A stretch of DNA of 58,192 bases from Thermoplasmatales archaeon (GCA_041305025.1 JBFYMG010000057.1:1-58192); one strand, 5' to 3'. Positions 15,496-33,520 are shown, numbered from the stretch's first letter. The notes: generated by a model not told the origin, from the sequence alone. Program-made: numbers and translations.

Positions 15496-17730
<2,235 letters not shown>

Positions 17731-20381: not shown

Positions 20382-20948
20382 TCAGTATTTTTTAAAGCCA
20401 ATCCAACGTGGAGTTTTCTTCGTATAATTTTTGTATTTTTCGCCATATTTTTCAAGGCAAAATTTTTCTTCGTATTTAACAAATAAAACTATAATTATCA
20501 TATAGACAAACGTTATTATTAGAAAAATCCAGGAGTTTGATATCAATCCTATTCCAATATACGCAAAGAAAAATGAGAGATACATCGGATTTCTTGAGTG
20601 TTTATACATACCTGTCGTCACAAGTTCATCTGCCGGTGTTTTTATCCAGCTTATACAAGCACTGCTAACAATAATTATTCCGATAGCCCATAAAACAATT
20701 CCTAAATAGAAAAAAATCGAATCAAAAACTATTGGTAAGAAAAAACTTAAAATAATTGCAAGTATAAAAAAAATTGAGGAAAGGTCATATATAAATCTAA
20801 AAAAACCATCTCTTTTAATTTTTTTTTTGGATGAATCTTCTGGCCTATTCTTTTTTTTATAAACAAAAGGAAGAATTGTTATTATAAGATAAACTATGAG
20901 CAAGATATATGCGTTTATTAAACCTAATTCAAAGTTATTATATATCAA
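20382..20948 (-). CDS. ICMT/PEMT-family membrane methyltransferase
   Basis: LVTTGMYKHSRNPMY and EE..C...YG..Y..Y...TPRW motifs, multiple TM helices, TTG start after aaggtt. Confidence 0.88.
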   Translation of the reverse strand: MIYNNFELGLINAYILLIVYLIITILPFVYKKKNRPEDSSKKKIKRDGFFRFIYDLSSIFFILAIILSFFLPIVFDSIFFYLGIVLWAIGIIIVSSACISWIKTPADELVTTGMYKHSRNPMYLSFFFAYIGIGLISNSWIFLIITFVYMIIIVLFVKYEEKFCLEKYGEKYKNYTKKTPRWIGFKKY

Positions 20949-21310
20949 TTTTTAACCTTGCTTTATTTTTTATATATTTTGTTTTCCCCAGCATATACTA
21001 ACGTTAATTATAAATAATTACCCTTTCAGCATCTCCTAAAATTATTTCTGTTTCATTTTTTATAAAATCCTTTGTAAAAAATTTACAGTTTTTATAAAAT
21101 ACAACTTTATCTGATTCATATACTGGTTTTTCATATCGAATTTTTTAGTTTAATCATTAACGGGTATTCTTCCAATTTATTTAGAACAACCTGCAATAAA
21201 CCCTTTTGTTTTTTGTCTTTATTGAAAAAAGGAGTGAAAATAAAAAAAAGTAAGATTATTTTTGATACGGTTAAATAAAGAAATAAATTAGAGTTGTTTT
21301 TTATTTTCAA

Positions 21311-21337
21311 CCAGTTGGTTAGCAATTACCCAACTGG
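21311..21337 (-). terminator. 8-bp stem-loop overlapping the stop codon of the precursor ORF (terminator or stabiliser)
   Basis: ccagttgg (21311-18) is the exact reverse complement of ccaactgg (21330-37), with an 11-nt loop. Confidence 0.5.
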
Positions 21338-21412
21338 ACACTCTGGAACATGTAGAGATCCGTATGTTATTTCCTTATTTACAGATTTCATTTTTGGTTT
21401 CGTGTATTTCAT
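21326..21412 (-). CDS. Putative RiPP precursor peptide, 28 aa: MKYTKPKMKSVNKEITYGSLHVPECPVG
   Basis: Manual translation. SD-like aggttgat just upstream, own BRE/TATA, YxxP motif in a Lys-rich leader, and location inside the rSAM/PqqD cluster. Confidence 0.8.
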   Translation of the reverse strand: MKYTKPKMKSVNKEITYGSLHVPECPVG

Positions 21413-21448
21413 TTTTTATCAACCTTATTAATTTTATATGTTTTTCTT

Positions 21449-21465
21449 TATATAAATAGTTTTCC
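21449..21465 (-). promoter_or_regulatory. Archaeal BRE/TATA promoter for the precursor ORF
   Basis: The minus strand reads GGAAAACTA-TTTATATA, ending 37 nt upstream of the ATG at 21412. Confidence 0.6.
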
Positions 21466-21506
21466 TTACATTTATTACCACATTTATAGACGATTTAGAA
21501 AATTAT

Positions 21507-22520
21507 TCAGATAAACTTTCTATAACTTAGATCTTTTAAAAACATTATTATTTGTATAATGAGAAATACGGTAGGTATTATCGACATTGTTAGAAATGAT
21601 AAAGAAGAATATACGAAAAATGGCCACAACATCGTTGAAATTGGAAGGAAAAAATTTATGTTTTTTTGTCTTAAATCAAAATCTTTTATTTTCTCATGTC
21701 TTAACCATAAAATCATAAGAACTGGAAACACCACTAGAAAGGAAAAAGTAATAATATCTAAATAAAAATTATAAACACATAAAACTAATAACAAAATCCA
21801 TAAGATAATAGCTACATGAATTGTCCAGTTATAGCCAAGTATCACATTAGTGGGTTTTATTCCAAATTCCTCATCTGTTTTAATATCCCGCCAACTGATA
21901 ATTAAAGTATAAGAAATGACGGGGATGCCCATTATCAATCCAAGAGCGAAAATATCCATACTTAGCTTCGCTCCAGTAGTCAACCATCCTAAAACAAAAG
22001 GTAAAGAACCGAAAATTAACATGTTTGAAATCATGTCTATCAGTGGTTTGGTTTTAAATCTAACAGGAGGTGCAGAATACGAAAATGTGATAATAACAAG
22101 AATCAAACCCACAATAAAAAGTGTAAAATCAAAATAATACCATAGAAAATATAAACCAATAAAAGAACAAATAATTGATGATATAAACATTTCTTTATCT
22201 GAAATATATTTGAATACCCACACATTATGTTTTCTTGCAAATATATCAAGTTTTTTATCAAATAAAAAATTAGTAAAGCCACTAATAAATTCAGCCAATA
22301 TTAGAAAAAATATCATTATCAAAGTAGGATAAAACAAAAAATCTTTTATTGCCCACCATTCTCCCAGCAACAAAAATGAAATAGTAATAGGAACTGTTGG
22401 AATGCGGGAGGCAATAAGATAAGCAAGAAATTTTCTTTTTAAATAGTTTAAGCGTGGATTTTTGATATTTTTATCGTCGAATTTTTTTCCCCAATAAAAT
22501 TCTTCGAAATTTTTAACCAT
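21507..22520 (-). CDS. UbiA-family prenyltransferase (copy 1)
   Basis: NFLFDKKLD and DIKTD Asp-rich motifs, YSAPPVRFKTKP, about 9 TM helices. Confidence 0.9.
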   Translation of the reverse strand: MVKNFEEFYWGKKFDDKNIKNPRLNYLKRKFLAYLIASRIPTVPITISFLLLGEWWAIKDFLFYPTLIMIFFLILAEFISGFTNFLFDKKLDIFARKHNVWVFKYISDKEMFISSIICSFIGLYFLWYYFDFTLFIVGLILVIITFSYSAPPVRFKTKPLIDMISNMLIFGSLPFVLGWLTTGAKLSMDIFALGLIMGIPVISYTLIISWRDIKTDEEFGIKPTNVILGYNWTIHVAIILWILLLVLCVYNFYLDIITFSFLVVFPVLMILWLRHEKIKDFDLRQKNINFFLPISTMLWPFFVYSSLSFLTMSIIPTVFLIIQIIMFLKDLSYRKFI

Positions 22521-22597
22521 ATGAATCAGCCGTTTTTTTTTCTTTCATGCAATACTTTTTAAGCTTTTTATACTTACTAAAATATTGAACAGATATT

Positions 22598-23638
22598 ATG
22601 AATAATAGTGCCACAGCAGATTCGTATAGTAATGACATAAACATTGACGGTTTTAAAATAAGAATAGATGATTTTATAGAAGAAAGAATACTTCCGGATT
22701 ATTTCAATTCACCCTTTATTGGACAATGGGAAATTACAAGAGAATGCAACCTTAGATGCATATTTTGTTATAACAATTCCGGAGAAAAACTACCTAATGA
22801 ATTAACACACAAACAAAAAATAAACGTTGCAAAACAGATTGTGGGGGAAAAAATATATCGAATGTGTATAAGCGGAGGAGAACCAATTCTTTGCGAGTCT
22901 TTTTGGGATATCGCTAAAATTTTAAAACAAGGAAAAATCTTCTGCAATACCATAACTAATGGATGGTATGTCAGCGAAGAAAATGCATCTTTATATGCCA
23001 AATATTTTAAAAATATTCAGATCAGTTTAGATGGCAGAAAAAAAGAGACGCACGATAAACTACGGGGTAAAAAAGGTAGTTGGGAAAAAGCCGTTAATGC
23101 CTGTAAACTAATCAAAGATAATGGAGGAAAAATATCAATTGCAACAGTTGTAACTCCAATTAATCTACATGAGATTGAAGAATTAATTGATTTTTCATAT
23201 AGCATGGGTGCAATGGATATAAAACTTGAGGAAGTGATATTTACAGGTAGGGCATCAAACATAACTTATGATATTTCTTTATCTGAAAAACAATCATCTG
23301 AACTAGCAAAAATAATAAAACATAAAAAAAATGAATACAATGAAAAATTGTTTAATGTCGATATCGTACCTAAGACTCAATATAATTATGTTAGGGGTTT
23401 TACAAAAATCCCGCCAGTCTCAATATATATTTCGCCAACTGGCACATGCGCAATCGACCCGGTTCTTCCTTTCTCGGGTGGTTCTTTAAAAGAAAAAAAT
23501 CTAAAGGAAATTTGGAGCAACCTTAAAAAAATTCATAAAAATAAAGATTTCATAAATTATTCACTGAAAGTAAAAACAGGAAAAGATTTTAAAAATATTG
23601 ATAATATCCCTTACTTCAATGGTGAATTACATGATTGA
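22598..23638 (+). CDS. Radical SAM enzyme, PqqE/MftC-like peptide-modifying type, with a degenerate SPASM/twitch tail
   Basis: WEITRECNLRCIFC, ISGGEP, TITNG, QISLDG..HD..RG..GSW; overlaps a PqqD gene. Confidence 0.9.
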   Translation: MNNSATADSYSNDINIDGFKIRIDDFIEERILPDYFNSPFIGQWEITRECNLRCIFCYNNSGEKLPNELTHKQKINVAKQIVGEKIYRMCISGGEPILCESFWDIAKILKQGKIFCNTITNGWYVSEENASLYAKYFKNIQISLDGRKKETHDKLRGKKGSWEKAVNACKLIKDNGGKISIATVVTPINLHEIEELIDFSYSMGAMDIKLEEVIFTGRASNITYDISLSEKQSSELAKIIKHKKNEYNEKLFNVDIVPKTQYNYVRGFTKIPPVSIYISPTGTCAIDPVLPFSGGSLKEKNLKEIWSNLKKIHKNKDFINYSLKVKTGKDFKNIDNIPYFNGELHD

Positions 23639-23924
23639 TAAAAATCTTAAACCAAAACTTGCAAAAGACATAGTATACAAAGAAGAAGGAAAAAAAGGGG
23701 AAACTATAAGCATGGCGAGTTACATAGGTGGCCCAATTAGACTTTTAAACCCTATTGCTAGTAAAACCGTTAAACTCTTAGATGGAAAACATACAATTCA
23801 AGAGATTATAACAGAAATATATGAATCATTTGAGGATACTGATTTAAAAACAGTAGAAAACGATATAATAGAATTTTTATTAGACCTTGAAAAAAAGAAA
23901 ATCATAGAACCATTAAAAAATTAA
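23631..23924 (+). CDS. PqqD-family RiPP recognition element (97 aa)
   Basis: LN..A......LDGKHT..EI...I...F......VE.DI.EFL..L.KKKII pattern. ATG at 23631 after ggtga, overlapping the rSAM stop. Confidence 0.9.
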   Translation: MIDKNLKPKLAKDIVYKEEGKKGETISMASYIGGPIRLLNPIASKTVKLLDGKHTIQEIITEIYESFEDTDLKTVENDIIEFLLDLEKKKIIEPLKN

Positions 23925-23930
23925 AAACAA

Positions 23931-24908
23931 TTACCCTTTAACATATTTTGTAAAGATAATAATGTCATAAATTATAAAAAATATCCAAATCATTAAAAAG
24001 AAAATTGGGAAAATATTTTTTGAAAAAAAACTTAACAAAATTAAGATAGCGCCTGCAAAAAATAAAGTGCTTAAACCCCCGACTATATTTACCAACAATT
24101 TACGATTATTTCTATAAACAAAAGCAAGGATTATAAGAGGAATATAAGCCAAAAGAGAAATTGTCAATAAATCCGTAATTTCAAAAAAATAGATCGCTAT
24201 AAATAAATCGAGTATGTATATGACACTCCCCACTATGAGAGAATTTTTTAAACCTATAATATTGCAAGAAGTTCTTATGCCCAATTCCTTATCCATCTCT
24301 ATATCAGTTGTTGTATAGAAAAAGAAAATATGTGAAATAATTAAAAAAAGAATTAAAAAATAAAAAATAGACTCAAAGGTTAAAGAATTTAGTGTTATCA
24401 TCCATCCCATAAAAAAAGGAATCGACCCGCCTAGTGCATTCATTAAACAATCAAATGGTGGTTTTGTTTTAAGTCTAATTGGGGGAGTAGAATAAAATAT
24501 ACCTATTACAACTATTAAAAATCCCAACAAAAAAACCTCAATGTTTATAAAAAAATATAGCAATAACAGAGGAATAAATGATAAAAAAACGGACATAACC
24601 AGCATTTCTTTTGTAGAAATATATTGAAATACTTTAACAATAGGTTTTCTTGCGAATATATCAATTTTTTTATCAAAGACGATATTTATCATAGAGCCTG
24701 CCGAAAAAATTCCTAAAAGCGCCAATAATACAATCACACTTTCAACAACTGGGAATTTTTGTATAGAATACCATTCACCTAAAAGAAAAAAAACTGATAC
24801 AATAAACCAACAAGATAACCTAAACGAATTAATGTAAGAAATAAATTTATTTTTTAAAAAACGGGATTTTGAGTTTTGCTTTTTCTCAACCATCTGCATC
24901 AAGTCCAT
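23931..24908 (-). CDS. UbiA-family prenyltransferase (copy 2)
   Basis: NIVFDKKID and DIEMD motifs, YSTPPIRLKTKP, multiple TM helices; clear paralog of 21507..22520. Confidence 0.9.
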   Translation of the reverse strand: MDLMQMVEKKQNSKSRFLKNKFISYINSFRLSCWFIVSVFFLLGEWYSIQKFPVVESVIVLLALLGIFSAGSMINIVFDKKIDIFARKPIVKVFQYISTKEMLVMSVFLSFIPLLLLYFFINIEVFLLGFLIVVIGIFYSTPPIRLKTKPPFDCLMNALGGSIPFFMGWMITLNSLTFESIFYFLILFLIISHIFFFYTTTDIEMDKELGIRTSCNIIGLKNSLIVGSVIYILDLFIAIYFFEITDLLTISLLAYIPLIILAFVYRNNRKLLVNIVGGLSTLFFAGAILILLSFFSKNIFPIFFLMIWIFFIIYDIIIFTKYVKG

Positions 24909-25007
24909 TAGTTTTTTACTTAAATAACTTATCTTAAGTTCGAAATTTTGTATAATTCAAAAAGTGTATAAACTTTAATAGTAAGATAGAATATTATATC
25001 GCTAGAG

Positions 25008-26276
25008 ATGAATAAAGACAAAGACGACGAAAAAAATTTATTAAACAAATCTTCTAAAGAAGGACATATAATTGATAATGTACCATTTGTGGGCCAAGAA
25101 AACAGTATTTTTTGTTCATATGCTTGTCAAACAATGATTATAAAATATTATAATCGAAATGTTAACTTAGACGATTTTGTTTTTAACTCAGGAGTAAGTT
25201 ATTCGTTAGGCTATGCTAAAGATTATTTTAATTACTTTCCAACTTGTGGTACTTTTTTATCACAATGGCCACTCGACAGAAATTTTGTCGCTAATCTTTA
25301 TGGTTTAGAATTCGAAACCTGGTTTCCAACTGATTTAAGCAATTCAACATCTGAAATCTGGAATACGTATTGGGAAAAAATAAAATCATATCTCAAAAAT
25401 GATATTCCTGTATCTACATCAGTAGATTTAGTATCTCTACCTGCCTTTAGAGAACTCATCAACAATCAGTTGTGGATAAATGCAAAAAAAATCCCAAATT
25501 TCTCATGGAGCTTAGTTTCAACTGCCCATGAAATAGTAATTGTTGGATTCGATGAAGGAAAAAAATTGATTTACTACAATGATCCTGTTTCATTAAATCT
25601 TGGCAATGTTGATAATGGAATATATGCATCTGCTCCTTTGGATGTTTTTGCAAGATCAGTAGCTAATGCAAAAGTTGGTAATTTTTTTCCCAACTTCATC
25701 ATCAACACATATAAGGAAAAAAAACCTGCTTCATCTGATGAGATTATTTTTAGAAAATCACACGATAGAAATATCCAAAAACTTAGAGGAAATCCTTTAT
25801 TTTATGATGAGAAGTGGCGAAAATATCCTCTTGGCATAAATGCATTAAATGAAATAATTAAAAATTTTGAAAATATGAATAAAGAGAAAAATAAAGAATT
25901 AATATCAACATACAAATTAGATAGTGTTAAAAAAGCTTTTATGAAAAAGATTTCCTCAATTTTTACTAAAAAATCAGGTTCTCAATACCTAATTGATTCA
26001 TTTATAAATATTTATGATATTTTTTCTACTGAAAAAAAACATGCTTATGACTATTTAAAAAATAAATCTATAAATTCAAAAGAGTTACAAAATGAAATAG
26101 ATCTATTTGGTAAAGAAATGGAGAAATGGCAAGAAATTTCAAAATTTTATTCACGTTTTTACAAAGAATTAGTGCTTCCAACAAAAAACAATAAAATTCA
26201 AAAATTTAATGAAAAATTAGTTTCAAATATTTCAGATATAATAGATATCGAAAAAAGAATAGCAGATATTTATTAA
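25008..26276 (+). CDS. C39-like (BtrH_N/C39_2-type) cysteine peptidase
   Basis: NVPFVGQENSIFCSYACQTM (Gln/Cys) and HEIVIVGFD..IYYNDP (His/Asp) papain-like triad pattern; no signal peptide. Confidence 0.8.
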   Translation: MNKDKDDEKNLLNKSSKEGHIIDNVPFVGQENSIFCSYACQTMIIKYYNRNVNLDDFVFNSGVSYSLGYAKDYFNYFPTCGTFLSQWPLDRNFVANLYGLEFETWFPTDLSNSTSEIWNTYWEKIKSYLKNDIPVSTSVDLVSLPAFRELINNQLWINAKKIPNFSWSLVSTAHEIVIVGFDEGKKLIYYNDPVSLNLGNVDNGIYASAPLDVFARSVANAKVGNFFPNFIINTYKEKKPASSDEIIFRKSHDRNIQKLRGNPLFYDEKWRKYPLGINALNEIIKNFENMNKEKNKELISTYKLDSVKKAFMKKISSIFTKKSGSQYLIDSFINIYDIFSTEKKHAYDYLKNKSINSKELQNEIDLFGKEMEKWQEISKFYSRFYKELVLPTKNNKIQKFNEKLVSNISDIIDIEKRIADIY

Positions 26277-26307
26277 AAAATAGTTAACTAGATCAGTAGG
26301 AATAAAC

Positions 26308-27168
26308 ATGGATAATATAAAAATTGATATAAACGGGGTGTCGGAGACGCTTTTTTTTATCTTATATGCAAGAGCTATAGAAAGTCAATCAAAAGACCCA
26401 ATTATACAGGACCAAAAATCTGCTGAAATCGTTAAAATCCTTGATAAATTTCTTTCAGAATCAAATTCAAAAACACTTAAAAAACTTTATAACCGTAGGC
26501 TTTCAAAATATTATGTAATTTTAAAAGCCTTAAGAACAAAAAAATTTGATGATTATGTTAAAGACTTTTTATCAAAAAATCCAAATGGAATCATTGTAAA
26601 CATGGGATGTGGATTGGACACAAGATTTTATCGTATTGACAACGGAAAAGTAGAATGGTATGATATAGATTTACCACAAGTAATAGAGTTAAAAAAATAT
26701 TTCCTAAAAGAAAATGAAAGGTACCATTTCATAAGTTCTTCATTACATGATTTTAATTGGATGGATGTTTTATCAAAACATAAAGACCAATCTTTTATGT
26801 TTCTTGCTGAAGGAGTCTTTCAATACTTTTATGAAAATGAAGTAAAATCACTAATAGTTGAATTGCAAAAAAAATTTCCGGGATGTGAAGTTGCATTTGA
26901 TGTGACAAGCATGTGTATGAAAAGAAAACAAAATAACAGATTATTTAATGCCTATTTTAAATTCATGACAGGTTTAAATCAAGATGTAAATATTAACTTT
27001 GGGATTAAAAAAAGTCAAGAGATTTCATCTTGGAATGATGGCATTGAATTATTAGATGAATGGAGTTTTTTTGATAGGGAAATAGAAAAATTAAAATTTT
27101 TTAAGTTATACAAATTTTTAGAATCTGTAAGAAGAACAGATTGGATTGTTCGCTATAAATTGATTTAG
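26308..27168 (+). CDS. Class I SAM methyltransferase, LCM/TcmP-like
   Basis: GVSETL...YARA.ES, RT..FD, IVNMGCGLDTRFYR, WYDIDLP.VI, FLAEGV. Confidence 0.88.
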   Translation: MDNIKIDINGVSETLFFILYARAIESQSKDPIIQDQKSAEIVKILDKFLSESNSKTLKKLYNRRLSKYYVILKALRTKKFDDYVKDFLSKNPNGIIVNMGCGLDTRFYRIDNGKVEWYDIDLPQVIELKKYFLKENERYHFISSSLHDFNWMDVLSKHKDQSFMFLAEGVFQYFYENEVKSLIVELQKKFPGCEVAFDVTSMCMKRKQNNRLFNAYFKFMTGLNQDVNINFGIKKSQEISSWNDGIELLDEWSFFDREIEKLKFFKLYKFLESVRRTDWIVRYKLI

Positions 27169-27313: not shown

Positions 27314-29818
27314 ATGAAAAAAATTTTATCGATTGTTTTAGTAGGAATATTAATTTTGAGTGGAATTCAAGTTGTTGCTATCACAAGCAATACAAATACC
27401 GATGTAAAAGCCGATGCTAAATCTGAGATGATCATAAAGGCATTTTCAACACCAACAATAAAAGACAGTGACAATAGCTACATCGAAGTTAATCTTAAAG
27501 ATGCATCATCTTATTTGATGAGCCCTGGTCAGCCCAAGCTGCCAAAGGTTGTTGAATCTTTTGAATTACCTTTTGGTGCTAAAAATATTAAAGTGGAAGT
27601 GGCACCAGGTACTATTGTTGAACAGAAAATTACAAAAGAAATATGTCCTGCGCCTGCTATGCTTCCATTGATAGCTGATGAAAATACAGTTAGTTTTACC
27701 CAAGAAAAGGATTTAAAAACATACAGCAGCGATGATCCTTATCCCTCCAATTGGTACAGCTATAATGTTAGGTGTGGTTTAAACAAGGACAACGAAAGAG
27801 TAATTAATGTTATAGTTGACATTTATCCAGTAAGATATGTTCCATCCAAAGGAATTATTTACACTACGGAAAGTAGCGACATAAAGATAACTTATGAGGA
27901 AACCGACAGACAAATTTTCAATGGAGTTACAGAATATGATCTTGTAATTATTGCACCCTCTAAGTTTAAAAATCAACTTAAAAGGTTAGTGGATCATAAA
28001 AATAGCGTAGGAATAAGTACCTTTATTAAAACAACCGAAGAAATTTACAAAGAATACTCTGGCCGTGACAAACCAGAGAAAATAAAATATTTTATAAAAG
28101 ATGCAATTGAGAAAAACAATATCATATATGTTCTCCTTGTTGGTGGTTTGAAATCACAGATTTACGCTAAACCAAGAGATGACGCAAATCAGGGTACAAG
28201 AGGATGGTACGTACCGGTACGTTACACCAATCTTTATGACAATCCAAAATTCCCACTCGCCGAAAAATACTATGATCCAGGCATAATAAGCGATTTGTAC
28301 TATGCTGATATATATGATGGAAATGGAAATTTCAGCAGCTGGGATACAAACAATGACGATATATTTGCTGCATGGGGCAAACCAGGTGTGAAAAACGACA
28401 CAGGAATAGATTTACAACCTGATGTGTGCCTAGGTAGACTTGCATGCACAAGTAGAAGAGAAGTAAAAACAGTTGTTGATAAAATAATAAAATACGAAAC
28501 TAGTTCTGTTAGCACAACTGATTGGTTTAATAAAATGACAGTTGTGTCAGGCGATGGATTTATTGATCAACAGGATCTAAATATTAAATGGGACACAACA
28601 GGTTTAATAAACGGATATTACACAATATATGCACAGAGTATAAACGATGAAAATTTGGAAGGCCCTGTTGATACAATATCAATAAGGATAGATAGAAGAC
28701 TTGAAACTAAAATTACTTTTAATCATGATGACAACCTAAATCCTGCACTTAAAAATGGTTATCCTGCACCCCCTATAGCTGAATTGGTTTCCATATCACC
28801 TGACGACATACTAGGCTACAGTGACTATACATATACTCCTAATGAAGGAGAAGCATATGGTAATGATTTCAATCACTGGGCAAACATTAGCTACATAGAT
28901 GGTATCCTAACAATAAGGGGTAAATCATATGATCCGCAGCCCTATGGAAATCTTACAAATATTCATGTGTGGATTAAAAACCAAGATGGCATAGTTATTT
29001 TTTCGGAGTGGAGAAACAACACTGAGATGTATTATGAGGGAGAATGGACAACCGGTGAAAAAGAGTTATCAGGAAGAGGTGGAGCCCTTTACTACATACC
29101 CAGTAGCTTTGAAAGAAACATACTTTGGACTTCAAATGGCAGATTGACAGGACAAAAAGATGTTCTTAAAGCTATAAATGAAGGTTGTGGTTTTCTTTTC
29201 ATGTCAGGTCATGGTAGCCCAAATGTTTGGGCTGATCACTACCCGGGTGTTCCTGGAAACCGCAAATATGGAAGCGTCACTGGTCTGCAGGTTTCAACCG
29301 TCAAACCATGGCGTCCTTTTTATTCAAGACCAGCTTTCCCGATTGATACTCTTTCAAACGATGAAAAACTGCCGATCGCAGTGATTGGTGGTTGTCACAA
29401 CAGCCAGTTTAATGTCTCTTTAATTCCTGCATTATACGATATTCTTCCAACCTATCTTAAGTTCCTACCAAAAATATCTATGTGGACATATGGTAGCGCT
29501 GTTCCAGAATGTTTCAGCTGGCGTCTGATAAGCAACCCACATGGTGGCGCAATAGCGACAATAGGCAATACTGGTCTTGGTTATGGTATGCCAGGCAAGG
29601 ACTTAACCATAGGCGGTGGTGACGGATGGATCACTATAGAGTTCTTCAAACAATACGGAACGGAAAATCAGACAATACTTGGAAAAGCACACACTCAGAC
29701 AATTATAAGTTATATACATAACTTTGATATGAATGATCTTGAAGCAGGTCATCCTAAAACAGTGCAACAATGGGTTTTACTGGGAGATCCCACTTTAAAG
29801 ATAGGCGGGTACAGCTAA
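27314..29818 (+). CDS. Secreted C25 (gingipain-family) cysteine peptidase with propeptide
   Basis: Signal peptide, propeptide (PGQPKLP), YVLLVGG, SDLYYAD, GRL, catalytic SGHG and GGCHN, LLGDPTL. Confidence 0.9.
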   Translation: MKKILSIVLVGILILSGIQVVAITSNTNTDVKADAKSEMIIKAFSTPTIKDSDNSYIEVNLKDASSYLMSPGQPKLPKVVESFELPFGAKNIKVEVAPGTIVEQKITKEICPAPAMLPLIADENTVSFTQEKDLKTYSSDDPYPSNWYSYNVRCGLNKDNERVINVIVDIYPVRYVPSKGIIYTTESSDIKITYEETDRQIFNGVTEYDLVIIAPSKFKNQLKRLVDHKNSVGISTFIKTTEEIYKEYSGRDKPEKIKYFIKDAIEKNNIIYVLLVGGLKSQIYAKPRDDANQGTRGWYVPVRYTNLYDNPKFPLAEKYYDPGIISDLYYADIYDGNGNFSSWDTNNDDIFAAWGKPGVKNDTGIDLQPDVCLGRLACTSRREVKTVVDKIIKYETSSVSTTDWFNKMTVVSGDGFIDQQDLNIKWDTTGLINGYYTIYAQSINDENLEGPVDTISIRIDRRLETKITFNHDDNLNPALKNGYPAPPIAELVSISPDDILGYSDYTYTPNEGEAYGNDFNHWANISYIDGILTIRGKSYDPQPYGNLTNIHVWIKNQDGIVIFSEWRNNTEMYYEGEWTTGEKELSGRGGALYYIPSSFERNILWTSNGRLTGQKDVLKAINEGCGFLFMSGHGSPNVWADHYPGVPGNRKYGSVTGLQVSTVKPWRPFYSRPAFPIDTLSNDEKLPIAVIGGCHNSQFNVSLIPALYDILPTYLKFLPKISMWTYGSAVPECFSWRLISNPHGGAIATIGNTGLGYGMPGKDLTIGGGDGWITIEFFKQYGTENQTILGKAHTQTIISYIHNFDMNDLEAGHPKTVQQWVLLGDPTLKIGGYS

Positions 29819-29911: not shown

Positions 29912-30538
29912 ATTGTTTCGGCAATAGAACAAATTAAAGTTGGTCCAGATAATTTCAGTTACATCATCTACTGTCCAATTAGTAAGAAAGCTGCAGTTGT
30001 TGATCCTGGTCTTGATGCATCTAGCGCACTTAAATTCATATCATCTAAAAACTTGAAGTTAGAATACATCATTATTACCCATTATCATAGTGATCATTCC
30101 TCCGAAAGCCAAAGAATCAAGAATTTGATTCCCTCATCAAAAATTGCTGCTTCTGAACAGGATGGAAAAATGTTGGATGCGAAACCCGAGATAATTGTTT
30201 CAGATGGGAGTCGATTGAAACTTGGAAACATTGATATTGACTTTATATTAACACCTGGACATACTCCCGGCAGCATATGTATAATTGTTGATAACAAAGC
30301 ATTGCTAACTGGCGATACGCTCTTCATTGGAAATTGTGGAAGAACTGATTTGCCCGGTGGCAATCTAGCTCAGATGTATGAGAGTCTGCATGAAAAGATC
30401 ATGTCCCTTCCAAATCATTTGATTATTTATCCTGGACACGACTATGGTGACAAACCATTTGATACGCTTCGAAACCAGAAGATGAAAAATATAACTTTGC
30501 TGGCCAAAAATCTGGATGAATTTTCAAAAATACCTTAA
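29912..30538 (+). CDS. MBL-fold hydrolase (glyoxalase II-like); start codon uncertain
   Basis: THYHSDH, TPGHTPG, TGDTLF..GRTD, YPGHDY. The conserved N-terminus (GPDNFSYII..AAVVDPG) lies upstream of the track's TTG at 30053. Confidence 0.88.
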   Translation: MVSAIEQIKVGPDNFSYIIYCPISKKAAVVDPGLDASSALKFISSKNLKLEYIIITHYHSDHSSESQRIKNLIPSSKIAASEQDGKMLDAKPEIIVSDGSRLKLGNIDIDFILTPGHTPGSICIIVDNKALLTGDTLFIGNCGRTDLPGGNLAQMYESLHEKIMSLPNHLIIYPGHDYGDKPFDTLRNQKMKNITLLAKNLDEFSKIP

Positions 30539-30595: not shown

Positions 30596-33520
30596 TTACT
30601 TACCACCTTCATTTAATGGATCATATGGATTGAGTGCTGGATCTCCAAATAACATATACTCCTGATATGATGTATATTTGTTCTTCATCATATATGGATC
30701 TTCCAAGGCCGCGCTCTCCATTAAATTCGAATAAGTATTTCTTATCTGAACATCTTCTGCTAAATCTCCCGTATTTACTAGCGGTGGAGACCACCATAGT
30801 TCCCAGTCTGCATCCTGCGGAATGTACTTATTTTTAGCATCCCTTAAGGCCTTTCCGAAAGTAGCATCATCGTTTGTTATTGAATCAAGCATATCTGAAT
30901 ATATAAGGAAGCCAAAGTGATCGTCCGGATAAATGCCGTTCTTGGCGTTACGTTTTGCTTTTATGTATGACGCCAAAACTGAGAGATGAGTATCGACCTG
31001 TCTTTTCTTAGGCTCAAGATAACCTCCAGCAATATTTGATCCTGTTGGAGATGCAATAAGAGTCGCTACACCTGCATGCAAGAATGATTGGCCAAGGCTA
31101 CCTTTGGGATACATTCCATCTATTTTTCCACAGATACAACTCTCAAGCCATACGAAAGATGGACCTAATTTCATGGTCTCTACTTGTCGAGTATTGTATT
31201 GACAATGGGCCGCAAGAGAGGAACCAGGTCCTGTGCTAGGAGATACAACTTCCAATACCTTTTTCATCATAAACTTTGCTATGGGGCCTCCTATACCTGA
31301 GGATATTAAGTCAATACCATCCATGGCAAGAATGGCCATATTACCATGTCCATTTAAAAACGCAAAGTTAGCATCTTCTATCATCTTCCCGCCCGTTACA
31401 GCTCCTTCTCCGACGAGTTTTCTAATCATTGGCTTGAAGAATAACAATTTATTATAAGCTGCTGATTCATATTTAATCTTATTAAGAGCTTCATCGCTAA
31501 ATCCTTGTAAACCTGCTTGCTCTTTATAGGCTTGGTATACAGTTGTAAATCCCCATGTTTCTTTTGCATCTACAACCATTTTTTCCAACATTATTTCGCC
31601 ATAACCTGTCTCTAGTTTCATTGGCTCACCAGCATGGCCTGCGCCAAGTAACTTAGCTATTGGATACTTAATTGGAGGTTGCTGGAAATCTTGACCTTCA
31701 CCAACTAATACTGTAAAGGTGTCTTTCCAATCACCTAACTTCTCAATGATATCAGAGTAAAAGATGTTCCTAGCAATTAAAGCGCTGGCGTCTTGAGCAT
31801 CCCAGCCAGTTATACGCCCTACAATATTTTCTTGATATGGATACTTTGTAAAAACATCGTTTGCGAGGTTAGACCAATCATAGAGCGTTGGATCAATATT
31901 ACCATAAACTACATCGCTGGGGGTACCAACGCCCCAACCATACTGTCCATTCCAGTAATCAACGGGTTCAAGATAATTCTGATAAATAAAGTTAGGCAGA
32001 ACTGTGCCATCACCTACTAGTGCAATATAAACGGGAAATGCATCATAATGATCACGTAAAGTTTTGATATCTCTATCATCTACAAGTTCAATATCTGCAA
32101 TTTTGGCTAATACATCATTTAATGGTTTGTGAATTACATCAAAAAAATGCGTGTTTGCTTTATCTGTTATCCTAGGATTCCTTCGAGGCATATAGAAACC
32201 TGGACTGGTAGTTCCTTCATCGGTTAATACATCATCATCAGCAGTGAAAGCAAACTCAGGTTTAGCAAATACAATTCCATGATGATAAGCTGTTAAATAT
32301 GGTGCTAACGATGAAAGACCCTTCATCATTGGATAAACTGGATTTTCAAGTTTTTCCACAACAACATTTGCCGTAACTCTGCCTTGCTTCAAAGTTAGCC
32401 ATTGCCCTTTGCATCTAACTGTGTACTCTACGCCTCCACGACCATACAACACTGTTTCACCATATATCATATCTGTGATTAAATTGCCATTTGCATCTCT
32501 TTCTGCTATGCCGCCTGTTGCAGTTGAGCCTGAAAAGCCTTCATTAGTTTGAAGAGGTGAAGGTATATCAGGAAGATTTGCACCAACAGTGAAAGTTACA
32601 GAATCGCCGAGTTCATCTACATTCTCACAATCAAGATTTATTCCTTCAAATTTTATGAGAGCATATTTGTAATCATTCGGTATTTTAAAAGTGCCTAAAG
32701 TATATGCTCCTCCCTTAAGTAGAGCCTGGCCGATTCTTGTGCTAGAACCAGACGGGATCGTCATTGGTCCAAAAGAAAATGAAACAGCATCTAAAACCTT
32801 TGGTGGCCACGCATCTCTTGGATTTGCAAGAGTAATATAATCGATGTCACCAAATTTCTCTTGGACTAATTCAATGGATGCATCAACAATTTCATCAACA
32901 TCATCAAATTTTATGTAATCTCCATAACCATCTACATCACCGCAAACAAGCGAGTATTTAACACCTAGATCTTGGAGAACTTTATTTACATCTTGGTCGA
33001 GTTCATCAGTAACTATGATGGGCATGGTAAGATACGAAGCCAATGGAGCAGCTACAACACCCAGATCATAACCAGTTTCATTATTCTCTATTATGAGAAC
33101 TCCATCGCTGTGATCCCAATATTCCTTTGCAATTTGAAGAGAACATTCCTTTGCGGAAGTACCTTCTTTCGCGGGAATTTGTATTTTACCTGATTGCATA
33201 TCTAACTGATCATATAATTTAGTAACAGCTGATGATGGATCATCTAAATTTACTACTAAAAAAGGTTTTGTATGCTGTACGCCCTCGGTGTCATAGTGGA
33301 CAGCCAATGGTGTCGCAATAAGAGCATAAAATGGACTACAATCCAAAACGGATATTGCATCTGGCGCATTAGAAGATAAAACGCCGGAAACACTGAATAC
33401 TTCTTCTAGATTTGCCTCTACTTTTTTTGTTTCTTGAGGAGCCCAGTAATAGACTCCAATTGAAGCCATTACTAATATTAATACTCCAAATAAAACTATT
33501 AACTTATCATTCTTTTTCAT
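30596..33520 (-). CDS. Large membrane-anchored C25-like cysteine peptidase relative (974 aa)
   Basis: N-terminal TM, IALVGD, VGRITG, FLNGHG, WLESCICG and LFGDPAL echo the C25 catalytic layout. Confidence 0.65.
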   Translation of the reverse strand: MKKNDKLIVLFGVLILVMASIGVYYWAPQETKKVEANLEEVFSVSGVLSSNAPDAISVLDCSPFYALIATPLAVHYDTEGVQHTKPFLVVNLDDPSSAVTKLYDQLDMQSGKIQIPAKEGTSAKECSLQIAKEYWDHSDGVLIIENNETGYDLGVVAAPLASYLTMPIIVTDELDQDVNKVLQDLGVKYSLVCGDVDGYGDYIKFDDVDEIVDASIELVQEKFGDIDYITLANPRDAWPPKVLDAVSFSFGPMTIPSGSSTRIGQALLKGGAYTLGTFKIPNDYKYALIKFEGINLDCENVDELGDSVTFTVGANLPDIPSPLQTNEGFSGSTATGGIAERDANGNLITDMIYGETVLYGRGGVEYTVRCKGQWLTLKQGRVTANVVVEKLENPVYPMMKGLSSLAPYLTAYHHGIVFAKPEFAFTADDDVLTDEGTTSPGFYMPRRNPRITDKANTHFFDVIHKPLNDVLAKIADIELVDDRDIKTLRDHYDAFPVYIALVGDGTVLPNFIYQNYLEPVDYWNGQYGWGVGTPSDVVYGNIDPTLYDWSNLANDVFTKYPYQENIVGRITGWDAQDASALIARNIFYSDIIEKLGDWKDTFTVLVGEGQDFQQPPIKYPIAKLLGAGHAGEPMKLETGYGEIMLEKMVVDAKETWGFTTVYQAYKEQAGLQGFSDEALNKIKYESAAYNKLLFFKPMIRKLVGEGAVTGGKMIEDANFAFLNGHGNMAILAMDGIDLISSGIGGPIAKFMMKKVLEVVSPSTGPGSSLAAHCQYNTRQVETMKLGPSFVWLESCICGKIDGMYPKGSLGQSFLHAGVATLIASPTGSNIAGGYLEPKKRQVDTHLSVLASYIKAKRNAKNGIYPDDHFGFLIYSDMLDSITNDDATFGKALRDAKNKYIPQDADWELWWSPPLVNTGDLAEDVQIRNTYSNLMESAALEDPYMMKNKYTSYQEYMLFGDPALNPYDPLNEGGK

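Follow-up and report, generated by a model that had tools for sequence, protein, structure and literature searches.

Positions 20382-27168 of a 58,192-nt Thermoplasmatales archaeon sequence (GCA_041305025.1 JBFYMG010000057.1:1-58192; the whole stretch is called the window below) very probably hold a new kind of gene cluster, which makes a modified, probably lipid-tagged and methylated peptide from a 28-residue ribosomal peptide. An earlier note on this DNA had proposed a new archaeal RiPP system, and that reading is strongly supported by a conserved precursor found with a radical SAM (rSAM) enzyme and a PqqD protein, and by the mobility of the gene set as a unit. For the full explanation, in which the product is an rSAM-modified, prenylated and methylated lipopeptide, we estimate a probability of about 0.6, with the enzymatic steps predicted from family membership and co-occurrence.

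Gene Content and Genomic Context

The source organism is an uncultured archaeon, and the block is AT-rich and comprises seven genes. Its GC content was 0.271, vs 0.402 and 0.370 in the flanks, and the block was AT-richer than its flanks at seven of the eight loci compared. Every enzyme gene listed in the earlier note (ICMT-like methyltransferase, two UbiA proteins, rSAM with PqqD, C39_2 protein and LCM enzyme) was present and intact, and the precursor ORF, which the note had mentioned without coordinates, was located on the minus strand. The features are:

20382-20948, minus strand: integral-membrane ICMT/PEMT-family methyltransferase, 188 aa (Pfam PEMT, 1.5e-12)
21326-21412, minus strand: precursor peptide gene, 28 aa, MKYTKPKMKSVNKEITYGSLHVPECPVG (homologous small ORFs, HMM E = 2.9e-17)
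21418-21424, minus strand: Shine-Dalgarno-like GGTTGAT, 5 nt upstream of the precursor ATG, identical in L166
21507-22520, minus strand: UbiA-family membrane prenyltransferase paralog 1, 337 aa (Pfam UbiA, 6e-19)
22598-23638, plus strand: radical SAM peptide maturase, 346 aa (Pfam Radical_SAM, 1.8e-25)
23631-23924, plus strand: stand-alone PqqD-family RRE, 97 aa from ATG (Pfam PqqD, 9.7e-10)
23931-24908, minus strand: UbiA-family membrane prenyltransferase paralog 2, 325 aa (Pfam UbiA, 2e-27)
25008-26276, plus strand: cytoplasmic papain-like enzyme, N-terminal C39_2 and C-terminal helical domain, 422 aa (Pfam Peptidase_C39_2, 1.6e-13)
26308-27168, plus strand: soluble LCM/TIGR00027-type SAM-dependent (carboxyl) O-methyltransferase, 286 aa (Pfam LCM, 6.5e-21)

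The longest PqqD ORF (23598-23924) starts at a TTG at 23598, and the likely start is the ATG at 23631 (ATGATTGA), which lies 8 nt inside the rSAM gene, in line with the overlap reported earlier; through these 8 nt PqqD is probably translationally coupled to the rSAM. No exporter gene was found within 20382-27168, the same result as in the earlier note. The block also contained no CaaX protease gene (Rce1/Ste24), and its proteins included neither soluble protein prenyltransferase subunits nor a carrier protein.

The same ICMT-to-LCM block was flanked by gyrA and C25 peptidases in the window, by an ABC transporter and transposases in L166, and by saccharopine dehydrogenase and a beta-propeller gene in L173; overall, the enzyme set travels as a unit in at least four different genomic contexts. 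The UbiA, C39_2 and rSAM families are small and were found on the same contigs, and the source annotation of their members gave nothing beyond generic family names. Of 185,579 species genomes, a single one, a Thermoplasmatales MAG, contained a close relative. UbiA, LCM, YcaO, extra rSAM and glycosyltransferase genes vary between clusters, as tailoring enzymes of RiPP clusters do, and the extras seen in other clusters were YcaO, a SPASM rSAM, a B12-rSAM, glycosyltransferases, a sulfotransferase and a geranylgeranyl-reductase-like gene.

A Conserved Precursor Peptide

The 28-aa ORF at 21326-21412 is more than a chance reading frame. The earlier note had named the absence of a conserved small ORF from homologous clusters as a refutation; on the contrary, each of the 12 distinct close-family clusters that had sufficient flanking sequence contained a homologous ORF. 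The precursor was convincing in ten of the 12, with weak candidates in the other two (L004 and L172). Precursor ORFs were present in the window, L001 (two), L002 (two), L006, L166, L167, L169, L170 and L173, and divergent forms in L097 and L168. An HMM trained on six of these ORFs was used to scan 83,014 small ORFs from 2.03 Mb of retrieved loci, and matches at E < 1e-6 were confined to loci with a close-family rSAM, four of which had been held out. When the DNA of the window was aligned with that of L166, the small ORF and its Shine-Dalgarno site formed the main island of identity, other intergenic DNA being barely alignable; a stretch of about 25 nt directly 3' of the precursor stop was also conserved. 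Searches of Pfam and NCBIfam returned no family match for the precursor, and the PqqA and MftA models did not match it.

Residues 1 to about 19 form a conserved leader (consensus MKYxKPKMxxVDKE..G.) in which Glu14 is nearly invariant and which ends in small residues (G-S, G-A or A-G). Position 21 of the family precursors is aromatic (Y/H/W), and the tail is hypervariable, at 7-12 residues. In the window the core is LHVPECPVG: position 21 is His, and the last four residues, C-P-V-G, resemble a CaaX box.

The Radical SAM Enzyme and PqqD

The rSAM and PqqD genes always occurred together, and PqqD overlapped or abutted the rSAM in every close-family locus with room. The CX3CX2C motif of the rSAM consists of C50, C54 and C57, and its C-terminal domain is degenerate and SPASM/Twitch-like, without conserved auxiliary-cluster cysteines in two alignments. 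By sequence, the best solved relatives were SkfB (1.4e-22) and then PqqE (1.4e-10). Fold matching of an AF2 model (pLDDT 90) placed SkfB and SuiB first, with PqqE and CteB among the first 30 matches; viperin-like enzymes and DesII are scattered among them. Scores against the specific NCBIfam models were all far below their cut-offs. Because the SPASM/Twitch cysteines are not conserved, a sactipeptide-type or PqqE-type enzyme was ruled out, and a thioether-forming one was ruled out because most cores have no conserved Cys. As the enzyme lacks the auxiliary clusters of most RiPP cross-linking rSAMs, its reaction is not predictable.

UbiA-Family Prenyltransferases

The two UbiA proteins are paralogs with 33% identity. 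The NxxxDxxxD, YSxPPxRxKTKP and DIxxD motifs are invariant in both lineages, with the Asp-rich and basic motifs intact. Orthologs of paralog 1 adjoin the rSAM in most related loci. The best solved relative of paralog 2 was AfUbiA (4tq3, 3.6e-6), and its clade is rare and isolated, with 18 representatives at E ≤ 1e-30 among 1.84 billion. Among the matches listed, UbiA relatives lie on contigs whose lengths equal those of the contigs with the rSAM family. Copy number varied from zero to two per cluster. Within the close family, L168 has no UbiA and L167 and L004 have one each, so the pathway is not defined by prenylation. From their co-occurrence with the precursor and rSAM, prenylation of the peptide by these enzymes is plausible. 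Known UbiA acceptors are small aromatics, lipids, haem and chlorophyllide; we know of no UbiA-superfamily enzyme that acts on a peptide, all characterised ones using non-peptide acceptors. In the literature searched, no paper joined UbiA to PqqD, RiPP precursors or peptide prenylation.

The Papain-Like C39_2 Protein

The earlier note had described a C39-like peptidase, and the catalytic set (Q30, C36, H174 and D192) is indeed invariant in 30 homologs; however, the predicted two-domain fold (AF2, pLDDT 88) is nearest to the CtaG ligase and not to a proven leader peptidase. CtaG chains were the sole PDB fold matches at E ≤ 0.001 (E = 1.5e-6, TM 0.48/0.60), and the match spans the papain-like and helical domains, with 409 aligned columns at 11% identity. 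Because its fold is closest to this ligase, the protein may transfer as well as hydrolyse, and we treat it as a putative enzyme, presumed to process the leader and possibly a transacylase.

It could instead act mainly as a transacylase or ligase like CtaG, BtrH and AsbE, forming a thioester with part of the peptide and passing it to an amine or hydroxyl, in which case the peptide would be cyclised or joined to another molecule rather than undergo simple leader hydrolysis. The CtaG match over both domains points this way, as do the BtrH_N domain carried by some C39_2 family members and the Cys-His-Asp residues and bipartite architecture shared by these three transacylases (PMC12865890). We nevertheless find the idea doubtful: the block lacks the carrier protein that such enzymes need, the TM scores are only moderate, a RiPP pathway needs leader removal, for which the block offers no other protease-like gene, and the small residues that end the leader resemble those of double-glycine leaders. 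The ligase reading bears on this single step and can be true together with the main explanation. For leader processing, a cleavage site near the small-residue junction is a guess.

Methyltransferases and the CaaX-Like Tail

The ICMT-like protein scored slightly below Pfam ICMT (23.3 bits vs a cut-off of 24) and below the cut-off of NCBIfam isopcys_mtase (5.8e-14), with MddA as its second NCBIfam match (3e-7). Its best solved relative was the Methanosarcina ICMT (Ma-ICMT; 4a2n, E = 7e-8), with residues 16-180 aligned to 11-188, nearly full length. Among related loci, orthologs occurred only in L166 and L173, such that the gene was found in all three clusters whose peptides end in CPVG, CPIA or CPVA (window, L166 and L173) and was missing from nine clusters with Cys-free peptides. 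In all three peptides the Cys stands exactly four residues from the C-terminus, with V or I at a2, and the rest of the core differs. The rSAMs of the ICMT-containing clusters are 86-87% identical to that of the window, and because the three clusters are each other's closest relatives, the correlation amounts to roughly a single evolutionary event. The ICMT-like methyltransferase of the earlier note was present, but it is an accessory tailoring enzyme, outside the conserved core and found only with Cys-containing CaaX-like peptides, which gives the note's proposal of a carboxyl-methylated product a more specific form.

CaaX-like methylation of the peptide is plausible. The enzyme might also S-methylate the Cys thiol or another group rather than a prenyl-cysteine carboxylate, the CaaX likeness then being coincidental. 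MddA is a methanethiol S-methyltransferase of the same superfamily, the block holds neither a CaaX protease nor protein prenyltransferase subunits, and C-terminal methylation could already be the work of the LCM enzyme. This we regard as possible though unlikely, given that an ICMT ortholog, aligned almost end to end, is the best solved relative and that the Cys position and a2 residue are fixed in three of three peptides. The LCM enzyme matched TIGR00027 slightly below cut-off (2.1e-24), had LCMT1/Ppm1 as best solved relatives (1e-7) and was present in L001, L006, L166, L167, L169, L170 and L173.

Alternative Readings of the Cluster

Two unrelated functions might lie side by side, with the rSAM, PqqD, small ORF and papain-like enzyme making a peptide, and the UbiAs and ICMT/PEMT-like enzyme acting only on archaeal membrane lipids or quinones. 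Such a division would suit the non-peptide acceptors of all characterised UbiA enzymes, the membership of phospholipid methyltransferases in the PEMT family, and a geranylgeranyl-reductase-like gene, typical of archaeal lipid synthesis, in L172. It is improbable, however, given that the UbiA clade is small and its members, among the matches listed, share contigs with the rSAM family; that the UbiA genes are interleaved with rSAM, PqqD and precursor on both sides and move with them across contexts; and that the presence of the ICMT-like gene tracks the C-terminal CP[V/I][G/A] of the peptide.

A redox cofactor, one of the products suggested in the earlier note, would share the PqqD/PqqE-like pair with PQQ, and PqqE ranks second by sequence among the solved relatives of the rSAM. 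As in PQQ or mycofactocin synthesis, the rSAM and PqqD would cross-link conserved residues and the rest of the peptide would be discarded; near-invariant Glu14 and the aromatic at position 21 recall the Glu and Tyr of PqqA. UbiA enzymes and methyltransferases are the standard kit of quinone biosynthesis, and here they would give a membrane-anchored, quinone-like, prenylated head group. The variable peptide counts against this product, since a cofactor would need fixed atoms: the aromatic switches between Y, H and W, the tail is hypervariable, and two different precursors can occur within one cluster. Moreover, the precursor matches neither the PqqA nor the MftA model, no PqqB, PqqC or PqqF was found among the block's proteins, PqqE and MftC have SPASM clusters that the rSAM lacks, and some gene clusters have no UbiA. 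The cluster is also very rare, AT-rich and set in several genomic contexts, which is unexpected for core energy metabolism. Given the hypervariable peptide tail, we judge a redox-cofactor product to be unlikely.

Comparison With Known Systems

Like PqqE/PqqD, SkfB, SuiB/streptide, CteB and MftC/MftB, the archaeal system has a short precursor with a conserved leader, and a PqqD-family RRE that adjoins the rSAM and is probably translationally coupled to it. Unlike them, its rSAM has no conserved SPASM/Twitch auxiliary-cluster cysteines and its precursor matches no known precursor family; the UbiA, LCM and ICMT-like tailoring set occurs in none of the PQQ, SkfB, streptide, CteB and mycofactocin systems. 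The SynChlorMet cassette (NCBIfam ScmA-ScmF), defined by bioinformatics only, likewise joins a short peptide, a PqqD relative and rSAM enzymes. Matches to it were weak and all far below the curated cut-offs (PqqD to ScmD, 7.4e-7; rSAM to ScmE, 6e-23; precursor to ScmA, E = 0.15), and ScmE and ScmF, unlike the archaeal rSAM, are SPASM enzymes.

In eukaryotic CaaX processing, as of yeast a-factor, Cys is prenylated, aaX is removed and ICMT methylates the product. The window, L166 and L173 peptides resemble such substrates in ending Cys-Pro-[Val/Ile]-[Gly/Ala], with an ICMT-family membrane methyltransferase and prenyltransferases encoded alongside, and the product to be expected, like a-factor, would be a short peptide that carries a prenyl group and a methyl ester and is released from a longer precursor. 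In contrast, the candidate prenyltransferases are integral-membrane UbiA enzymes rather than members of the soluble alpha/beta type, neither Rce1 nor Ste24 is encoded in the block, the ICMT-like protein falls below curated ICMT thresholds, and most peptides of the wider family are Cys-free. Soluble prenyltransferases of RiPPs include the cyanobactin F-type ABBA enzymes (PagF/LynF) and ComQ, which acts in the ComQ/ComX system. The proposed logic is similar in that a ribosomal peptide would gain an isoprenoid on a side chain, whether of Tyr, Trp, His or another residue, but the block has no ABBA- or ComQ-type enzyme and its candidates belong to the unrelated UbiA membrane superfamily. The C39_2 protein shares with CtaG, BtrH and AsbE the papain-like N-domain, helical C-domain and Cys-His-Asp triad (PMC12865890), and differs in its 11% identity, its lack of a carrier-protein partner and its ribosomal rather than thiotemplated context.

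Proposed Pathway

In the prenylated, methylated lipopeptide pathway that we favor, PqqD would bind the leader and hand the peptide to the rSAM which, with its SAM-cleaving cluster only, would abstract a hydrogen and introduce the family-defining modification, most likely at or beside the aromatic Y/H/W at position 21. One or both UbiAs may then attach an isoprenoid chain, for which an aromatic side chain would be the most natural acceptor and Cys another possible one in the window cluster. The C39_2 enzyme would cut off the leader near the G-S, G-A or A-G junction, and the LCM enzyme would methylate a carboxylate, probably that of the C-terminus. In the C-P-V-G subtype of the window, the ICMT-like enzyme may act on a Cys-dependent group and methylate either the thiol or, once trimming has exposed it, a prenyl-cysteine carboxylate. 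Such a pathway would yield a lipopeptide that is small, hydrophobic and associated with the membrane, and it would do so with membrane enzymes that had no earlier link to peptide natural products. A hypervariable core, together with the rarity and mobility of the cluster, makes a signalling or antagonistic role more likely for this product than that of a housekeeping cofactor.

A compact gene block in an ordinary archaeal chromosome

Seven intact protein genes make up the block at 20382-27168, together with a single small ORF. This bears out the inventory of an earlier note, which from the sequence alone had proposed an archaeal RiPP system built of a radical SAM enzyme (rSAM), a PqqD protein, twin UbiA prenyltransferases, a peptidase and two methyltransferases. 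The seven protein genes are as follows.

Protein genes of the block (coordinates, strand, assignment)
20382-20948 (-), PEMT/ICMT-superfamily integral-membrane methyltransferase (ICMT-like), 188 aa; Pfam PEMT 1.5e-12, ICMT 23.3 bits against a cut-off of 24
21507-22520 (-), UbiA-1, UbiA-family prenyltransferase, 337 aa; 33% identical to UbiA-2
22598-23638 (+), radical SAM enzyme, 346 aa; Pfam and NCBIfam matches
23631-23924 (+), PqqD-family protein, 97 aa; ATG overlaps the rSAM stop by 8 nt (ATGATTGA)
23931-24908 (-), UbiA-2, UbiA-family prenyltransferase, 325 aa; Pfam UbiA
25008-26276 (+), Peptidase_C39_2 protein, 422 aa; Pfam
26308-27168 (+), LCM/TIGR00027 methyltransferase, 286 aa; Pfam and NCBIfam

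The GC content of the block is 27.1%, against 40.2% and 37.0% in its flanks. Around it the window is ordinary archaeal chromosome, with gyrB and gyrA directly upstream and genes for ribosomal protein S3Ae, Nre, Rad50/Mre11 and a SepRS-like protein elsewhere.

Several neighboring genes were recorded in passing, some of them also in the neighborhoods of rSAM homologs (handles beginning with L or P) that we compared with the window. The GyrB encoded at 15589-17730 (+) has a lysine-rich N-terminal extension of ~100 residues (KKKxK repeats) ahead of its ATPase domain, making it 713 aa long versus 638 aa for the L001 ortholog. Directly downstream of the cluster lie genes for two large Peptidase_C25 (gingipain/PorU-like) proteins, at 27314-29818 (+) and 30596-33520 (-), both with an N-terminal hydrophobic signal-like segment as judged by eye. 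In L001 and L006 the cluster is likewise followed by C25 genes, in L088 they come before it and in L171 they are found nearby, while clan-CD C11 peptidases occur in its vicinity in L002, L169 and the P0017 locus. This recurrence could reflect shared synteny or an extracellular processing partner. The 161-aa metallo-beta-lactamase-fold ORF at 30053-30538 (+) begins at profile position 43 of 196 and looks N-terminally truncated, or its start may have been mis-called. A cis-prenyltransferase of the undecaprenyl-diphosphate-synthase family (1.8e-84) is encoded at 34492-35280 (-), 7 kb from the cluster; it probably serves housekeeping dolichol synthesis and is a possible source of polyprenyl donor for the cluster. 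An ORF of 2025 aa at 2747-8824 (-), which had no Pfam match at E<=1e-5 and adjoins a PKD-domain protein gene (1232-2554, -), possibly encodes a giant surface protein. The 500-aa protein encoded at 53269-54771 (-) has both a tRNA_bind_4 domain and a class II aaRS core, and presumably resembles O-phosphoseryl-tRNA synthetase, an identity that, if true, would inform host taxonomy and physiology.

A conserved small ORF as probable precursor peptide

The earlier note had posited a precursor ORF but gave no coordinates for it. We located it as an ORF of 28 codons at 21326-21412 (-), MKYTKPKMKSVNKEITYGSLHVPECPVG, between the ICMT-like gene and UbiA-1, with a GGTTGAT site 5 nt 5' of its ATG. Homologs were sought in the fetched neighborhoods of rSAM homologs, and the census below covers those loci.

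Small ORFs related to the window precursor (locus, sequence)
L166: MKYSKPKMKSVDKEITYGSLHVAECPIA
L173: MKYTKPKMKSVDKEITYGSLHDPVYCPVA
L170: MKYEKPKMKSVDKEISYGTLHHTYPIGYT
L169: MKYTKPKMTNVNKEIVYGSLWIPFNPYTGAPM
L001: MKYQKPKMKDVDKEITYGSLYYRPSPIPH and MKYQKPKMKDVDKEVTYGSQYWILAVPSPD
L006: MKYQKPKMKDVDKEITYGSQYFVLAIPGPD
L002: MKYISPKMEDVDREVSSGAAYMLLAQTP and MKYISPKMEDVDKEVSSGAAYLLIQSSP
L167: MKYKKPEMKEINKEVSFAGLYAGIYPL

Longer small ORFs with the same start (MNYxKP...) were found directly upstream of the rSAM gene in L097 and L168, and weaker candidates in L172 and L004. In the precursor alignment M1, K2, Y3 and P6 are invariant and K7, M8, E14 and G18 nearly so. Position 21 is aromatic (Y, H or W) in the 11 precursors that align without insertion, and the weak L172 candidate has an HY pair shifted one residue further along. 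Residues 1-19 are conserved, whereas the last 7-12 form a hypervariable tail that has a Pro close to its end, so that the 28-aa ORF family has the conserved leader and variable core in a gene-encoded peptide by which RiPPs are generally recognized.

We trained an HMM on the first six peptides and searched with it the complete set of 83,014 small ORFs from the 2.03 Mb of fetched loci. Hits at E<1e-6 came from close-family loci (those of the nearest rSAM relatives) only, including L166, L167, L169 and L170, all of which lay outside the training set, while no hit from the ~150 unrelated rSAM loci was better than E 0.5. When the intergenic DNA of the window was aligned with that of L166, the Shine-Dalgarno site and small ORF formed the main block of identity and the rest was barely alignable; 4/9 substitutions within the ORF are synonymous. 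Given the HMM control and this DNA alignment, conservation of the small ORF is not due to chance. The only other intergenic stretch kept between the two loci is ~25 nt immediately after the precursor stop (21290-21325; columns ~350-405 of the alignment), CTCTAATTTATTTCTTTATTTTA, which could act as a T-rich terminator of archaeal type or have a regulatory role.

Eight precursors were scanned with Pfam and NCBIfam, and no family matched. The best NCBIfam score was to ScmA (E 0.15, not significant), and the PqqA models gave no match although the leader looks PqqA-like by eye. A 64-aa ORF at 21131-21325 (-) was also considered as the precursor and rejected in favor of 21326-21412 (-), as it had no family matches and no homologs. 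In Caldisericum sp. AR60 (L017, 11923-12018, +) a small ORF with a similar N-terminal motif (MKNYESPTIDF...), MKNYESPTIDFIEGYETEAGTEAPLNAVKEE, lies near a distant (30%) rSAM homolog. Such leaders near distant bacterial rSAMs come from a loose, unvalidated pattern scan; the MKY-type leader may extend to bacterial systems.

The radical SAM enzyme and its PqqD partner

In every close-family locus the rSAM gene is followed by an overlapping or adjoining PqqD gene. The window's PqqD-family protein passes the Pfam gathering score (PqqD, 9.7e-10) and represents the stand-alone RiPP recognition element (RRE) that generally accompanies the maturase of a RiPP cluster. The rSAM carries its CX3CX2C motif at C50, C54 and C57, and its C-terminal region is homologous to the SPASM/Twitch hairpin (YISPTGTCAxDPxLPFSGGSLKxKSLKEIW). 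No Cys after residue 116 is invariant or nearly invariant in the rSAM alignments, and the enzyme therefore probably has no auxiliary cluster. By sequence the best solved relatives are SkfB (1.4e-22) and PqqE (1.4e-10), and the AF2 model (pLDDT 90) is nearest in fold to SkfB and SuiB; PqqE and CteB also occur among the top 30 fold matches, interleaved with viperin-like enzymes and DesII. All specific NCBIfam rSAM models, StsB, SkfB and AlbA included, scored far below their cut-offs.

Comparison with known rSAM systems set the family apart from each. In PQQ biosynthesis terms, the rSAM scores 91.6 bits for PqqE against a cut-off of 381 and the PqqD protein 37.1 for TIGR03859 against 46; the PqqB and PqqC of that pathway have no counterpart domains among the block's proteins, and PqqE has SPASM auxiliary clusters whereas the window rSAM lacks conserved C-terminal cysteines. 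For mycofactocin, the rSAM reaches 104.7 bits with TIGR03962 (MftC; cut-off 265), and the precursor C-termini of the window family are unrelated to the Val-Tyr end of MftA. Sactipeptide and ranthipeptide systems have conserved core Cys donors and a SPASM/Twitch Fe-S cluster, which distinguishes them from the window family. Cys is missing from 9/12 MKY-type precursors, and since most cores have none, a thioether (sactipeptide) reading was dismissed. A three-residue cyclophane (triceptide-like) reading of the aromatic-X-X motif was likewise rejected, since X3 is not conserved and is sometimes Gly (no C-beta), and the enzyme lacks a SPASM domain. Lacking an auxiliary cluster, the rSAM probably performs chemistry unlike that of the known cross-linkers.

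The papain-like C39_2 protein

By inspection of its sequence, the C39_2 protein has no signal peptide or membrane segment. All 30 homologs compared share Q30, C36, H174 and D192. A Foldseek search of the PDB with its AF2 model (pLDDT 88) returned CtaG as the sole kind of significant neighbor (E 1.5e-6, TM 0.48/0.60), with both domains aligned. CtaG is a papain-like ligase which, with BtrH and AsbE, defines a class of bipartite-fold Cys-His-Asp transacylases (PMC12865890). The C39_2 model matches these ligases in its bipartite papain-like plus helical fold and its triad; they use a carrier-protein-bound acyl donor, however, and there is no carrier protein domain in the block. Double-glycine leader peptidases differ in another way, having a PF03412 domain and an ABC exporter, whereas the window protein matches PF13529 (C39_2) and the block has no ABC transporter. 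In the precursor alignment the leader ends in G-S, G-A or A-G, and double-glycine-type sites lie after GG, GA or GS; cleavage here is a prediction. The label of C39-like peptidase in the earlier note can thus be trusted only in part: no other protein in the block is a candidate for leader removal, but the only significant fold neighbor of this one is a ligase, and as modeled it may also transfer an acyl intermediate.

Two membrane prenyltransferases

Both UbiA genes pass the Pfam UbiA gathering score and belong to the UbiA superfamily on its usual criteria. Both paralog lineages keep the NxxxDxxxD, YSxPPxRxKTKP and DIxxD motifs, with N74/D78/D82, Y138-P141-P142-R144-K146-K148 and D201/D205 invariant, and so look catalytically competent. 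Neither reaches a specific NCBIfam equivalog cut-off, and AfUbiA is the best solved relative. In an exhaustive HMMER search for UbiA-2 among 1.84 billion representatives, 18 proteins reached E<=1e-30, a number that rose to 45 at E<=1e-10, followed by generic UbiA background. By this search the UbiA-2 clade is distinct and rare, and as far as contexts are visible it is tied to these clusters.

Full-text literature searches found no paper that connects UbiA enzymes with either RiPP precursors or PqqD. To our knowledge, and in agreement with published reviews, the prenylated RiPPs known so far use ABBA-type or ComQ-type enzymes. We give slightly better than even odds to the UbiAs acting on the peptide. 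If they do, they would represent a new enzyme superfamily for peptide lipidation and a source of new lipopeptide biocatalysts.

An ICMT-like gene is paired with CaaX-like peptides

The ICMT-like protein passes Pfam PEMT (48.3 bits against 25) and falls below the cut-offs for Pfam ICMT (23.3 against 24) and NCBIfam isopcys_mtase (52.4 against 160). Its best solved relative, over nearly the full length, is the Methanosarcina ICMT ortholog (Ma-ICMT, 4a2n; 7e-8), for which we know of no identified natural substrate. The LCM protein is closest among solved proteins to LCMT1/Ppm1, enzymes that methylate a C-terminal carboxylate.

The ICMT-like gene occurs in exactly three clusters (window, L166 and L173), and these alone have Cys-containing peptides; nine other clusters have neither. 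In 3/3 cases the Cys is fourth from the end (CPVG in the window, CPIA in L166, CPVA in L173), while the residues ahead of it vary (LHVPE, LHVAE and LHDPVY, respectively). Cys at -4 with an aliphatic residue (V/I) at a2 corresponds to the CaaX pattern of eukaryotes, and ICMT is the enzyme that finishes the CaaX pathway. The substrate feature of that pathway, a C-terminal Cys-aliphatic-aliphatic-X, is found in the window, L166 and L173 subtype only, whereas domains of its soluble alpha/beta protein prenyltransferase and its Rce1/Ste24-type aaX protease are absent from the block's seven proteins. The three clusters are closely related, with the rSAMs of the other two 86-87% identical to the window's, so the correlation between Cys and ICMT-like gene is close to one evolutionary event.

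Methylation of the Cys thiol, rather than of a prenyl-Cys carboxylate, is a real alternative for the ICMT-like enzyme, because its second-best NCBIfam match is the S-methyltransferase MddA. An a-factor-like prenyl-Cys methyl ester as the product is rather doubtful. The strict pairing of the enzyme with CaaX-like peptides provides a directly testable hypothesis for the role of prokaryotic ICMT homologs.

Related clusters vary in tailoring genes and location

Around the rSAM/PqqD pair, gene content varies. A C39_2-type gene is found in all close-family loci except L004, the most divergent subtype. UbiA is absent from L168, single in L004 and L167 and present in two copies in the other close-family loci. 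The LCM gene was found in the window, L001, L006, L166, L167, L169, L170 and L173, and sulfatase-family proteins are encoded in the L002 and L167 clusters. At L167 (3193-14450) the precursor MKYKKPEMKEINKEVSFAGLYAGIYPL is surrounded by genes for a YcaO enzyme, one UbiA, the sulfatase-family protein, an additional SPASM rSAM, a B12-binding rSAM in split form and LCM, so that other classic kinds of RiPP chemistry are also recruited by the family. At L172 (373-11191) two glycosyltransferases, a sulfotransferase and a geranylgeranyl-reductase-like gene are found beside the rSAM/PqqD and UbiA genes, the last addition hinting at isoprenoid-chain processing within the pathway. The P0017 locus, read from its gene list alone, adds glycosyltransferases, a B12-rSAM and a methyltransferase. 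A fixed core enzyme with an RRE, a varying tailoring set and a leader/core peptide are what a RiPP family usually consists of.

The exact seven-gene block is present in three different chromosomal contexts in all.

Chromosomal contexts of the seven-gene block (locus: upstream; downstream)
Window: gyrA; C25 peptidases
L166: ABC transporter; sulfotransferase, transposases
L173: saccharopine dehydrogenase; beta-propeller gene

The version without the ICMT-like gene lies between purP and thrS in L169, downstream of purP in L170 and after gyrA in L001. In 7/8 loci the block is AT-richer than its flanks, and it behaves as a horizontally mobile accessory unit.

The family is also rare. Among 5.8 billion proteins the rSAM family forms ~38 clusters at 90% identity, with source annotation never going beyond the generic 'MoaA/NifB/PqqE/SkfB family radical SAM enzyme'. 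A metagenome scan of 241 million records gave 12 close loci, most on contigs too short to include a precursor. One close locus (L006, from an uncultured Thermoplasmatales MAG) was found in a scan of 185,579 species-representative genomes, in which the other 79 loci had generic rSAMs (<=33% identical) with no UbiA, C39_2 or LCM nearby. The UbiA-2 and C39_2 families are as small as the rSAM family, and their members lie on contigs whose lengths equal those of the rSAM contigs.

A proposed pathway and its alternatives

Taken together, we consider this a genuine RiPP cluster with 21326-21412 (-) as its precursor, at a probability of about 85%. We infer all six steps of the following pathway. PqqD would bind the MKYxKPKM leader and hand the peptide to the rSAM, which would make the family-defining change, probably at or near aromatic position 21. 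The UbiAs would then attach an isoprenoid at the membrane, on the aromatic side chain and/or, in the window subtype, on Cys25. The papain-like enzyme would cut off the leader around G18-S19, LCM would esterify a carboxylate, and the ICMT-like enzyme would methylate a Cys-dependent group, yielding a small, hydrophobic, membrane-associated lipopeptide.

Two other readings were weighed against a lipopeptide. The peptide could be the source of a prenylated cofactor; we disfavor this, as the aromatic residue is variable and the tail hypervariable, two different precursors can occur in one locus, no PqqA or MftA model matches, and the distribution of the cluster is rare and mobile. Alternatively, the block could hold two unrelated systems side by side. 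Interleaving of the genes, co-occurrence of the UbiA clade with the rSAM family and the tracking of a peptide feature by the ICMT-like gene all speak against that, and we disfavor it too.

Full-text literature searches found nothing describing this system. The cluster belongs to a kind already known, the rSAM/RRE RiPP clusters; its new features are the family of precursors, an rSAM that probably has no auxiliary clusters, putative tailoring by membrane UbiA and ICMT-like enzymes, and a candidate processing enzyme resembling CtaG. Archaeal RiPPs described to date are few, and we know of none that combines a radical SAM enzyme and RRE with membrane prenyltransferases. The class is easy to mine and express, owing to its precursor signature, MKYxKPKM...KE..G.[YHW], and to enzyme families that are small and co-occur tightly.

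The furthest-reaching interpretation of the genuine RiPP cluster is that it represents the first RiPP class lipidated by integral-membrane UbiA prenyltransferases, with the window subtype a prokaryotic CaaX/a-factor analog whose C-P-V-G peptide is S-prenylated, trimmed and carboxyl-methylated by the ICMT homolog. We regard this as quite unlikely. If true, the CaaX/a-factor-like part would supply the first natural substrate for prokaryotic ICMT homologs, and would mean an independent archaeal origin of peptide prenyl-cysteine methyl esters.
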